From positions 1 through 28,944 of the forward strand of contig CAZHSU010000001.1 in assembly GCA_964535095.1 (NCBI GenBank): DNA of 28,944 nucleotides, read 5' to 3'. Below, one piece after another: positions 24,602 to 28,523 of this stretch. The stretch comes from an uncultured Candidatus Saccharibacteria bacterium. Lineage in GTDB: Bacteria; Patescibacteriota; Dojkabacteria; SC72. The translations under genes and the position numbers were made by a program. Positions within the stretch are counted from its first letter, which is position 1. The number at the start of each line of letters is the position of its first letter. The notes under the pieces were generated by a model. That model was given only the letters and a program-made list of their open reading frames with translations. It made no database searches and was not told the DNA's origin.

Positions 24602-27049
24602 ATGGAAGATAAGAAAACATTTACAAGTCAAACAACACAGAAACTGACATCAATGCAGGATCAGTTAAAAACTTCTGGACAAAAATATGCAGAATATCAG
24701 ACATTGATACAGTCTGAGTTGGATAGTGTTAAGCCTCGAAGTGATAACCCTACTGCAGAATTTGTAGAGCCAGTAAAGGAAGAGGAAGAGAAAAAGAATC
24801 CTCTTTTTAAGATGCTAGACAAGATTTCCGAGATGGTAAATAAGGATAAACCGAAAGAAACAGAGAAACCTTCTCCTGAAGAGATTCAGGAGGTTGAGCA
24901 TTCCTCAAGAGGACAAGAATTAGAAAATACTATTGGAGCACCAACAGATCTCTCCATACAAGATTTAATTGCACCAATTGACCTTGAGGTGGATTTCAAT
25001 CATTTGCAGATGGGGCAATACTATTTTAGAACTCTTTTTGTAAGTGGATATCCAAGATTTGTTGGACCAAACTGGCTCTCCCCTATTATTAACTTTGAAC
25101 ATTCACTCAGAATTAGCACTTTCTATTACCCCGTAGATTCCAAGGATATTCTAGACAAGCTTAAAAAGAAGATTGGGGAAATGGAAGCAACTCTTTATAC
25201 TCAGATAGAAGAGAGGAAAGCTGTAGACCCTTCACTTAAAGTTGCCCTCTCTGATGCTCAGCAATTGCAAGACTCCATTGCAGAGGGGACAGAAAAATTC
25301 TTCCATTTCACAATGTATGTCACACTCTATGCAAAAGATATGGATTCACTGGAAAAGATTACTAGAAATGTAATATCTACTTTTGCAGCAATGAATGTAA
25401 CCGCAAAAACTGCGACATTACAGCAAGAGAATGCATTTATAAGTACACAACCATTAGGAAGTGATAAGCTCTACATTACAAGAAACATGGATACTACTTC
25501 TCTTGCAACCACATTCCCATTTGTTACATCTGAATTAACAATGGATCATGGAATTATGTATGGATTGAATATGCATAACAAAAGTTTGATTGTATTTGAC
25601 CGTTTTGAACTCCCTAATGCAAATTCTGTTATATTCGCAACTTCTGGTGCTGGTAAGAGTTATTTTATTAAACTTGAAGCACTGAGAAGCCTTATGCTAG
25701 GTGCAGAAATTATTATTATTGACCCGGAGAGAGAGTATGAGACATTAGCGAAGGCAGTGAATGGATCATACATCTCCTTCTCACAGGACAAAGGACATAA
25801 GATGAATCCTTTTGAGCTCTCAGGAGCAAGAAGCCAAGATGGGGAAGAAGACGAGCTAAGAATTAAAATGCTTTCCTTGCTTGGTTTTTTCAAAGTTCTT
25901 TTCGGAGGAATCACAAATATTGAAGAATCCATTTTAGACAGAGCATTAAACTTGGCATATAGAGAGAAAGGCATTACATTGGATCCAGAGACACAATCCA
26001 AAGAACCTCCAATGTTAGAGGACTTGTACAAAGTTCTGAAAGGGATGGCAGAAACAGAAGCTCATGGATTAGCTAGAAGAATGGAGAAGTATATAATTGG
26101 AAGTGGAGCAGGTGTTTTCAATGAAGCAACAAACTTTGAGATTAATAATCCCTTTACTGTCTTTAGTATTAGAGATCTGCAAGATGAACTTAAACCTCTA
26201 GCAATGTATCTAATGTTGGACTTCATCTGGACAAAAATTCGTAAAGAGAAAAAGAGAAGATTACTCATTGTTGATGAGGCTTGGTACATGATGCAAGATC
26301 CAGAATCTGCAAAATTCATGTACTCTATTGCTAAGAGAGCTAGGAAATATTACTTAGGACTTTCCACAATTACACAGGATGTTGCAGATTTCTTAAACAA
26401 CGATATGGGAAGAGCCATTATTACAAACTCCTCCATGCAAATATTGATGAAACAGAGCCCTACTGCGGTAGATTTACTACAAAATGTATTTGGACTTTCA
26501 GATGGAGAAAGAAGCTTCCTTCTAAGCTGTGAAAAAGGTCAGGGACTCTTCTTCGCAGGCTCCAATCATGTAGGTATACAGGTTCTTTCAAGTCAAGCTG
26601 AAAATGAGATTATAACCTCAGATCCAAAAGAACTTGAGAAGATGAAAGAACGAGAAGGCCAAACAGACACAAGAAGCATTGAAGAACTAGCACAGGTATA
26701 TGAGCCTCCAGCAGCACAACGAAGGATAAGTAAGGTTAGTGGACATAGACAAGATGAGATTATTAGAGGTGCAGTAGTAAAGAAAGAGAGTGAGAGTAAG
26801 AAATTAGAAGGAGAGAGAGAAAGATACCAAAGGGAGTTAGAGCAGAGAATTAGAGAACAGGAGGATTTAGTTAATCCAGAGAAAAAGAGGGAGCAACAAA
26901 GTGTTCTTGATGATATTAATAACAGAACAATTACTGGACAAGTTGTGAACTCCAGAAAAGAGGCACAGAAAGGAAGTCAGCATTTAACACCACAAGGAAT
27001 GATTGAAAGCTTTGGAAAAGATAATAACAAAAATGTTCCTAATACCTAA
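24602..27049 (+). CDS. VirB4-like type IV secretion ATPase
   Basis: NANSVIFATSGAGKS (Walker A), IIDPEREY, MNPFE, LLIVDEAW (Walker B), RARKY, ITQDVADF, NSSMQILMKQ, GQGLFFAG. Confidence 0.92.
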   Translation: MEDKKTFTSQTTQKLTSMQDQLKTSGQKYAEYQTLIQSELDSVKPRSDNPTAEFVEPVKEEEEKKNPLFKMLDKISEMVNKDKPKETEKPSPEEIQEVEHSSRGQELENTIGAPTDLSIQDLIAPIDLEVDFNHLQMGQYYFRTLFVSGYPRFVGPNWLSPIINFEHSLRISTFYYPVDSKDILDKLKKKIGEMEATLYTQIEERKAVDPSLKVALSDAQQLQDSIAEGTEKFFHFTMYVTLYAKDMDSLEKITRNVISTFAAMNVTAKTATLQQENAFISTQPLGSDKLYITRNMDTTSLATTFPFVTSELTMDHGIMYGLNMHNKSLIVFDRFELPNANSVIFATSGAGKSYFIKLEALRSLMLGAEIIIIDPEREYETLAKAVNGSYISFSQDKGHKMNPFELSGARSQDGEEDELRIKMLSLLGFFKVLFGGITNIEESILDRALNLAYREKGITLDPETQSKEPPMLEDLYKVLKGMAETEAHGLARRMEKYIIGSGAGVFNEATNFEINNPFTVFSIRDLQDELKPLAMYLMLDFIWTKIRKEKKRRLLIVDEAWYMMQDPESAKFMYSIAKRARKYYLGLSTITQDVADFLNNDMGRAIITNSSMQILMKQSPTAVDLLQNVFGLSDGERSFLLSCEKGQGLFFAGSNHVGIQVLSSQAENEIITSDPKELEKMKEREGQTDTRSIEELAQVYEPPAAQRRISKVSGHRQDEIIRGAVVKKESESKKLEGERERYQRELEQRIREQEDLVNPEKKREQQSVLDDINNRTITGQVVNSRKEAQKGSQHLTPQGMIESFGKDNNKNVPNT

Positions 27050-27281
27050 GAAAAAAATTGAAGAAAATAAAGAACCCCTAAGGGAAGAGCTATACCTTGT
27101 AACACAAGCTGTTGATACAAGTACAATCGAGGAAGAACAGAAAGACTCTGATTTAGAACAACTAGAAAAAGCAGAAGAGAGAGTTAATTACAAGTCGGAT
27201 ATTGCGAAAGCTGTAAAAGACCCCCTCGTTTCTAGAGCTGCAACATCTTTACAATTGAAAAATCCATTCAAGGGGATTTAG
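27033..27281 (+). CDS. Small acidic hypothetical protein (about 82 aa)
   Basis: ATG overlaps the VirB4 3' end; the track's TTG 27003 start is an alternative. No recognisable motif. Confidence 0.5.
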   Translation: MFLIPKKKIEENKEPLREELYLVTQAVDTSTIEEEQKDSDLEQLEKAEERVNYKSDIAKAVKDPLVSRAATSLQLKNPFKGI

Positions 27282-28480
27282 CTTAGTGGACCTTGATCCA
27301 AATCCAAAAATTCTCTCAAGTTATCCTTACGAATGACAACTGGCAAAGGTGCTCCATCTATAATTTTTCTAGCAGCACTTCTTATCATTGCAGAGATATT
27401 CCTCTCTAACTGTCTAATTCCTGCATCAAAACCTACTGGCCTGATGACAGAAAGCCAAACATCTTCCTCTATTTCTAATTGGTCTGGTGTAATATGCAAA
27501 TCCTCCAGAATCTTAGGAAGAATATATTGTTTTGCAATAACACCTTTCTCGTCATCCGAATAACTGGTAAATCTAATAACCTCTACCCTATCAATCAATG
27601 CTGCTGAAAGTCCTCCCAAATTATTCGCTGTACAGATAAACATAACTTTGGAGAGATCAATTGGATAATCGATGTAGTGATCCATAAATGTCGAATTCTG
27701 TTCAGGATCTAAAATCTCCAAAAGAGTTGCCATAACATCACTTAGCAAGCCTGCACTACCACTTGCCTTCTCTATCTCGTCTAACAAAATTACTGGATTC
27801 ATAGTTCCACACCTGATAAGAGCCTTCACAATTTGACCTGGCTCACCATCTGGAGAATACCTAGGAGTTCCTCTGAGAGTTCTAACATCACCAATAGCAC
27901 CCAATGATATTCTTGCAAACTTTCTGTCCATAGCATCCGCAATAGACTTTGCAATAGAGGTTTTACCCACACCCTGCAATCCTAGAAAAAGAAAAACTGG
28001 AGAACTCAATGAAGATTCTTCAGAAACCCTCTGGTGAATTCGTGGACTGGGGGATTGAGAAAAACTTGCTATCTGTGTTGGAATATTTCCTACATTCACC
28101 TCCTCTAATTTTCTTGAATTATCTATACTCAACTGCATTGCTGCAAGATAGTCCAATATTAAGTTCTTAACAGACTCCATCCCATGATGGGAAGAATCCA
28201 AAAGAGCTTTAGCATTTCTAATATCCAAATTGTCCTTAGAAGTAATACCCCATGGCACTTTAGTAATCCAATCTATATATTTATTTACATTTTCAAATTC
28301 ACTACTATACCCACCCAATTTAATCATTCTTTTTAATCTTTCGATAGATTGGAGAGTATCTTCTTTTAATTCCTCTGGGGTTGAAGAGCTCAGAAGCCTT
28401 TCTTGTAAAGAAATTATTTCCTTTATACTCTCATCTATTCCAGTGTTATTATTAGAATTTGTCATTGTTGAATACTCCAT
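27278..28480 (-). CDS. Lon-family AAA+ ATPase lacking the N-terminal and protease domains (about 400 aa)
   Basis: YIDWITKVPW..SKDNLDI..AK..LD..HHGMESVKNLILDYLA, Walker A GLQGVGKTS, NPVILLDEIEK, LLEILDPEQNSTFMDHY, DLSKVMFICTAN, LIDRVEVI, GIRQLER. Stops where the Lon protease domain would begin. Confidence 0.9.
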   Translation of the reverse strand: MEYSTMTNSNNNTGIDESIKEIISLQERLLSSSTPEELKEDTLQSIERLKRMIKLGGYSSEFENVNKYIDWITKVPWGITSKDNLDIRNAKALLDSSHHGMESVKNLILDYLAAMQLSIDNSRKLEEVNVGNIPTQIASFSQSPSPRIHQRVSEESSLSSPVFLFLGLQGVGKTSIAKSIADAMDRKFARISLGAIGDVRTLRGTPRYSPDGEPGQIVKALIRCGTMNPVILLDEIEKASGSAGLLSDVMATLLEILDPEQNSTFMDHYIDYPIDLSKVMFICTANNLGGLSAALIDRVEVIRFTSYSDDEKGVIAKQYILPKILEDLHITPDQLEIEEDVWLSVIRPVGFDAGIRQLERNISAMIRSAARKIIDGAPLPVVIRKDNLREFLDLDQGPLS

Positions 28481-28523
28481 ATTTATCAAGTGTATATACT
28501 TGCAAGGATGAAGTCAAACAGCT

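Follow-up and report, generated by a model that had tools for sequence, protein, structure and literature searches.

Lon, which joins an unfoldase to a protease in a single chain, is the textbook example of such a fusion, and the AAA+ remodellers that carry neither a fused nor a docked peptidase, such as ClpB/Hsp104 and ClpV, have aromatic pore-loop paddles and two AAA+ rings. LonA (endopeptidase La, MEROPS S16 subfamily A; 3m6a, 6n2i/6u5z, Meiothermus taiwanensis LonA and human LONP1) consists of a LON N-domain, a pre-AAA bundle, an AAA+ alpha/beta core with its lid and an S16 Ser-Lys protease, and its pore loops carry the signatures Tyr-[IV], G-A-M-P-G and D-[WFM]-R-G. In the M. taiwanensis enzyme, substrate contacts are made by the pore-loop-1 residue Tyr397 and the pore-loop-2 residue Trp431, and degradation depends on both (PMC8503904). 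According to one account of the family, every Lon has an ATPase as well as a protease domain (PMC9569914), and two reports describe LonC, for example from M. taiwanensis, as keeping the protease without ATPase activity (PMC3391209, PMC13069640). In the full-text literature that we searched we found no account of a protease-less Lon AAA+ protein, nor any relevant one of Lon in Dojkabacteria, CPR or Patescibacteria.

The gene described here, for which we use the name lonS (short, protease-less Lon), lies in a window of 28,944 nucleotides (the whole stretch of DNA that was analysed) from a 0.5 Mb, 70% complete genome of a Patescibacterium, and the named homologues of its product belong to Candidatus Dojkabacteria. 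The product shares with LonA the pre-AAA bundle, the AAA+ alpha/beta core and the lid, with about 45–50% identity over the AAA+ module and the same Walker A/B, sensor 1, Arg finger, sensor 2 and fold, but it lacks both the LON N-domain and the S16 protease, its pore loops have no canonical Tyr-[IV] and read D-x-E-P-G and GLL, and it falls in a separate clade. Like LonC it is a Lon-family member minus one of the two fused activities, and the two are mirror images, LonC being a protease without ATPase activity whereas lonS encodes the ATPase residues without a protease. ClpB/Hsp104 and ClpV belong to other clades, whereas the lonS product is predicted to be a single ring module of the Lon type, and its pore loop is non-canonical. 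The features of the gene and its upstream flank are as follows.

28489 to 28517, minus strand: promoter-like TTGACT-17-TACACT, the -10 hexamer ending 8 nt before the lonS ATG; a consensus match only
27278 to 28480, minus strand: lonS reading frame, which starts with the ATG at 28480, ends with the stop codon 27278-27280 and encodes a LonA-type AAA+ ATPase of 400 aa that stands alone
28094 to 28447, minus strand: N-terminal helical bundle, residues 15-132 (numbered from the TTG), a homologue of the part of LonA that immediately precedes the AAA+ core
28010 to 28093, minus strand: variable Ser/Pro-rich linker, residues 133-160, within the stretch (about 122-160) between two blocks that align to LonA
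27959 to 27982, minus strand: Walker A, GLQGVGKT, with G170, G173, G175, K176 and T177 invariant
27836 to 27877, minus strand: pore loop 1, LRGTPRYSPDGEPG, with Ser where LonA has its canonical Tyr and a Tyr one residue earlier
27776 to 27793, minus strand: Walker B, VILLDE, with D237 and E238 invariant
27737 to 27769, minus strand: pore-loop-2 region, KASGSAGLLSD, 2 residues longer than in LonA, a conserved GLL replacing D[WFM]RG
27587 to 27631, minus strand: sensor 1, TANN (N289), at 27620-27631 and Arg finger, DR (D300, R301), at 27587-27592
27305 to 27562, minus strand: Lon-type lid (alpha) subdomain, which includes sensor 2 and the Pfam Lon_lid match (residues 332-379)
27401 to 27421, minus strand: sensor 2, GIRQLER (R359)
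27281 to 27298, minus strand: C-terminal tail DQGPLS, a conserved feature of the Dojkabacteria clade that the wider family, ending at the lid, does not have

The reading frame listed for this gene (27278-28489, minus strand, 403 aa) begins with a TTG, and its fourth codon is the ATG at 28480 that the first-pass annotation had taken as the upper end of the gene. This ATG is the likelier start on sequence grounds, since the family consensus begins there, the homologue P0001 (97% identical to the lonS product) is likewise 400 aa long and the promoter-like site lies 8 nt upstream. Promoter-like sites of this kind are no commoner in the region than in shuffled sequence; with a -10 hexamer ending 8 nt before the ATG the lonS mRNA is probably leaderless or nearly so. 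On the plus strand of the window, a 92-aa ORF (27003-27281) overlaps the 3′ end of the neighbouring VirB4 gene and the lonS stop (the latter by 4 nt); two relatives (L039, L040) have counterparts of 72–88 aa in the same place, and it has no Pfam match.

Pfam detects an AAA domain (residues 167-308, PF00004, 4.7e-18) and Lon_lid (PF22667, 1.7e-08) in the lonS product and neither Lon_C nor LON_substr_bdg, and TIGR00763 (lon) matches it over model positions 245-566 of 795 with 321 bits, below the 608-bit equivalog cut-off. The absence of the S16 protease after the AAA+ module, read from the bare sequence in the first-pass annotation, is thus borne out, as there is no Lon_C, the lonS frame ends cleanly and its stop codon and that of the convergent VirB4 gene are just 228 nt apart, which leaves no space for a protease remnant; a terminator scan between the two genes found none. 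The N-terminal substrate domain had likewise been called absent, and this holds for the LON substrate-binding domain (PF02190 was found neither in the lonS product nor in five genomes searched, two of them complete single-contig genomes) but not for the N-terminus as a whole, as residues 15-132 correspond to the LonA helical bundle. Against solved LonA sequences the product aligns in two blocks (residues 19-121 and 159-397), and the Ser/Pro-rich insert that had been noted before Walker A does fall between them; it is predicted to be disordered (pLDDT 43–60) and varies within the family. The AF2 model has a mean pLDDT of 85 and its best PDB matches are the AAA+ modules of LONP1 and LonA over about 380 columns, with a Foldseek probability of 1.00 to LONP1/LonA chains and a TM score of 0.86 (normalised to target) against the E. 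coli Lon AAA+ fragment 6n2i. Among the 120 closest homologues the DQGPLS tail is conserved to at least 90%, and it could be a candidate docking peptide.

Every ATPase motif that had been called intact (Walker A and B, sensor 1, Arg finger and sensor 2) is present at the place named for it. The Walker A Lys/Thr, the Walker B Asp-Glu, the sensor-1 Asn, the Arg finger and the sensor-2 Arg are all invariant in a 42-sequence family alignment that extends down to 37% identity. The product therewith keeps all residues of a competent AAA+ ATPase, including the trans Arg finger, and is predicted to hydrolyse ATP. AAA+ modules isolated from LonA are poor at assembling when the protease domain is missing; as the trans Arg finger is invariant, the lonS product would nevertheless be expected to assemble into a ring.

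As also reported in the first-pass annotation, GTPRYSPDG occupies exactly positions 27845-27871 in place of the GHRRTYIG of LonA. The loop, RGTPRYSPDGEPG, aligns without gaps to the RGHRRTY[IV]GAMPG of B. subtilis and E. coli LonA and lacks the canonical Tyr-[IV] of RGHRRTY[IV]G, whose Tyr contacts the substrate in LonA. Across the wider short family pore loop 1 reads RGxS[RK]xxxDAEPG and both the canonical Tyr position and the residue preceding it vary freely, and in the clade of the Dojkabacteria family to which we refer as f1 it is fixed as RG[TSA]P[RK]Y[SA]xDxEPG, so that the short family has a conserved acidic D-x-E-P-G where LonA has G-A-M-P-G. Because the canonical aromatic paddle position is not conserved and the loop carries this acidic motif, the short family probably grips its clients in a way that differs from the Tyr-staircase threading of Lon. 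The earlier label of unfoldase is accordingly doubtful for the family, as its members do not conserve the canonical Tyr position of pore loop 1; the lonS product of this genome may still thread, since the Tyr of the f1 clade is strongly conserved, one position off the canonical site.

To place lonS among Lon proteins we used a sample of 251 Patescibacteria genomes with a match threshold of E<=1e-30. A short Lon is clearly present in 58 of them (frames of 349–530 aa) and ambiguous in two more, 22 hold a long Lon only and 169 have no match at this threshold; about 30 of the 58 also hold a Lon of ~800 aa. The canonical RGHRRTY[IV]G occurs in 11 of 12 full-length Lons from such two-form genomes, the twelfth being unmatched by the pattern search. 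In a maximum-likelihood tree of AAA+ modules (39 short and 32 full-length, one mis-cut long-branch row being disregarded) a single branch with a support of 100/99 parts the two groups, and the lonS of a second Dojkabacteria family, f2 (L042, L043), is sister to the clade that holds the lonS of the window. An exhaustive profile-free search of 1.8 billion cluster representatives ranked only a handful of short-type clusters (at 50% identity) ahead of ordinary Lons, the language-model neighbours of the lonS product are annotated as Gottesman-, Roizman- and Levybacteria, and a wider contig scan gave mostly ordinary full-length Lon from other phyla, its sole short forms lying in a Patescibacteria-type context. 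By these comparisons the lonS family is an old Lon paralogue confined, as far as searched, to Dojkabacteria and Microgenomates-type lineages.

Some further observations concern the family at large. The language-model look-alikes include, as candidate relatives at most, stand-alone clusters of AAA plus Lon_lid from giant viruses and Bacillota. A second short Lon-type gene, 46–48% identical and without the Ser/Pro linker, is present in some Dojkabacteria (G027:C1:994374-995399, G035:C6:22367-23389, G034:C34 and G040:C40:23362-24345), which implies that the short family was duplicated within the class. Eight loci with a short Lon (L073-L075, L077-L080 and L082) are mostly titled 'uncultured Gammaproteobacteria bacterium', with one 'Pseudomonadales' and one plain 'bacterium'. 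Most of them also carry nusA-infB-rpsO-pnp-lonS-rnj-ftsK with 50–60% protein identity to Patescibacteria, the same block as in the Levybacteria record L076, and their taxon labels are probably wrong.

The reading that lonS is a recently truncated or decaying Lon without a function of its own draws on the missing domains and on nothing beyond them, and we give it practically no credence. The ~400-aa form is present in 40 of 41 Dojkabacteria relatives and in all 17 genera sampled (open frames of 388–511 aa), and reaches far beyond them, and a full-length Lon was found in none of the 41. The catalytic residues are invariant, pairwise dN is 0.13–0.28 with dS saturated, dN/dS is about 0.03–0.15 and thus well below 1, and lonS is under strong purifying selection; together with the phylum sample and the branch that separates the short family from full-length Lon, this refutes decay and agrees with the earlier view of a dedicated gene. 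Nor did we find a split protease. The proposed search for a separate full-length lon or a free Lon_C gene found neither in the Dojkabacteria relatives, and Lon_C was not found in the window's own genome (70% complete), while the relatives, including 99%-complete single-contig genomes, gave only weak partial matches in ~450-aa frames. Two of these weak matches were checked as candidates for a separately encoded Lon protease and proved to be RadA/Sms (a Zn ribbon, a RecA-like ATPase and a ChlI/Lon_C-like tail); the remaining ones likewise are partial (model positions ~90-170) and lie in a ~450-aa frame. A missing protease could alternatively be supplied in trans, the lonS product being the ATPase half of a two-component protease docked on ClpP or another separate peptidase. 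The complete Dojkabacteria relatives (G019, G012, G023 and G027) have ClpP and FtsH, ClpX was not found in the five genomes searched, and the tail conserved in the Dojkabacteria clade would offer a docking peptide. Against this, the AAA+ core differs from that of LonA by only 2 residues in length and has no inserted docking loop of the IGF/LGF type, and a ClpC-like Hsp100 is available as a partner for ClpP (in G023 a ~824-aa frame adjoins radA at 406–408 kb, an arrangement as in Firmicutes), so that a ClpP partnership is unlikely; the tail is moreover missing from the wider family, no stand-alone Lon_C was found, and neither a LON N-domain nor a true Lon_C was found in the four relatives. Overall we regard this two-component arrangement as highly improbable. 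In the window's own genome the FtsH peptidase M41 is split over two frames (G000:C5:10609-11306), one of 645 aa (profile 9-119) followed by one of 134 aa (99-190), which suggests a frameshift or an assembly error.

Genomic context offers two further readings. The first-pass annotation had tied lonS to its neighbour, proposing that it might serve the PrgI/VirB4 T4SS-like machine as its own unfoldase or help to assemble it, and had looked to co-location across genomes for support. The convergent adjacency (gap about 0.2–1.3 kb) is indeed kept in 27 of the 36 Dojkabacteria relatives for which the two genes could be placed and in six of six further f1 genomes, but it is limited to the Dojkabacteria families f1, f3 and f4. 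In f2 the two genes share a contig at distances of 34 and 40 kb or are found on separate contigs, in f5 they are on separate contigs, in the two genomes that represent other orders of the class they are 641 kb from each other or on separate contigs, and in all other lonS-bearing genomes examined that have both on one contig they lie 27–157 kb apart. No general linkage was thus found, an outcome that the first-pass annotation had itself named as refuting its idea. The genes have separate promoters and stand tail-to-tail, which makes co-transcription impossible and excludes an operon, and the f2 ortholog of lonS sits within a pnp-rnj block instead. VirB4 is moreover present in 243 of the 251 Patescibacteria as against about 60 for short Lon, from which it follows that the apparatus does not need lonS. 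(The tallies for VirB4 and for udg, given below, each include one unpublished genome, G189, on which no other result rests.) A role in T4SS substrate unfolding or assembly thus loses its footing and we consider it very unlikely; the position beside VirB4 would be a lineage-specific rearrangement, a chance of local gene order that is no evidence of a common function. Several of the Patescibacteria VirB4 and udg matches (for example in G045, G231, G167, G064 and G248) hold in-frame TAA, TGA or TAG codons and could be pseudogenes, sequencing errors or cases of an alternative genetic code.

Clustering the ORFs of 20 loci from across the phylum defines a different neighbourhood, a co-directional block of nusA, infB, an unassigned gene, rpsO, pnp, lonS, a UDG-superfamily gene (udg), the RNase J gene (rnj), ftsK and a gene for an HTH protein, with gaps of 1–90 nt or overlapping genes. 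This block with lonS is present in many families, f2 among them, and recurs at seven further loci from the wider contig scan. We infer that it is the ancestral position of lonS and that lonS is a housekeeping gene; its residence in such a deeply conserved synteny block marks it as a core gene and does not thereby identify its client. The arrangement has a functional reading, in which lonS encodes a remodeller tied to RNA processing and decay (PNPase, RNase J, S15) or to the UDG-family neighbour, co-transcribed with them in most lineages: lonS directly follows pnp and precedes udg and rnj on the same strand in many families, and lonS and udg are immediately adjacent in at least 14 sampled genomes. 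However, all of these are core genes in a conserved block that also exists without lonS (G063 lacks lonS and still keeps pnp-udg-rnj), udg occurs whether or not lonS does (168 of 251 genomes) and several genomes with lonS gave no udg match at E<=1e-25, the block is broken in the family of the window's own genome, where pnp lies 27–30 kb from lonS and udg elsewhere, and the lonS product is acidic (pI about 5.0). With a phyletic pattern independent of lonS, udg was rejected as a functional partner. Plain synteny, with no functional tie, may account for the conserved neighbours, and a dedicated link to RNA decay or to the UDG-family protein is decidedly unlikely.

We therefore favour, as rather probable, the explanation that lonS encodes a stand-alone LonA-derived AAA+ ATPase of an old paralogous family, an ATP-hydrolysing, non-degradative, remodeller- or chaperone-like housekeeping machine that came to lie beside VirB4 by a lineage-specific rearrangement. 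Such a protein would assemble into a ring and hydrolyse ATP, would probably engage its client otherwise than by the Tyr staircase of Lon, and would remodel this dedicated client or act on it in the manner of a chaperone, without degrading it. In Dojkabacteria lonS is the sole type of Lon homologue found, and in other lineages it coexists with a normal Lon. A stronger proposal would make lonS a new kind of machine derived from Lon: a ring ATPase without proteolytic activity, its pore rebuilt and acidic, would have replaced Lon in Dojkabacteria and would remodel a specific housekeeping complex without threading for degradation, PNPase/RNase J being the best positional candidate; taken as a whole we think this unlikely. 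In a weaker form of this proposal lonS may have been secondarily recruited to the VirB4 apparatus in the Dojkabacteria families f1, f3 and f4.

In databases the family is labelled 'AAA family ATPase' or, wrongly, 'ATP-dependent Lon protease', and the latter label makes it unsafe to infer Lon proteolysis in these organisms from their genomes. For proteostasis in ultra-small bacteria, the pattern is that lonS is retained in the Dojkabacteria searched, in which true Lon and ClpX were not found. An ancient, selected family that consists of the LonA motor only, with a changed pore, would be the opposite case to LonC, and lonS would show what the Lon ATPase ring does without a degradation chamber.
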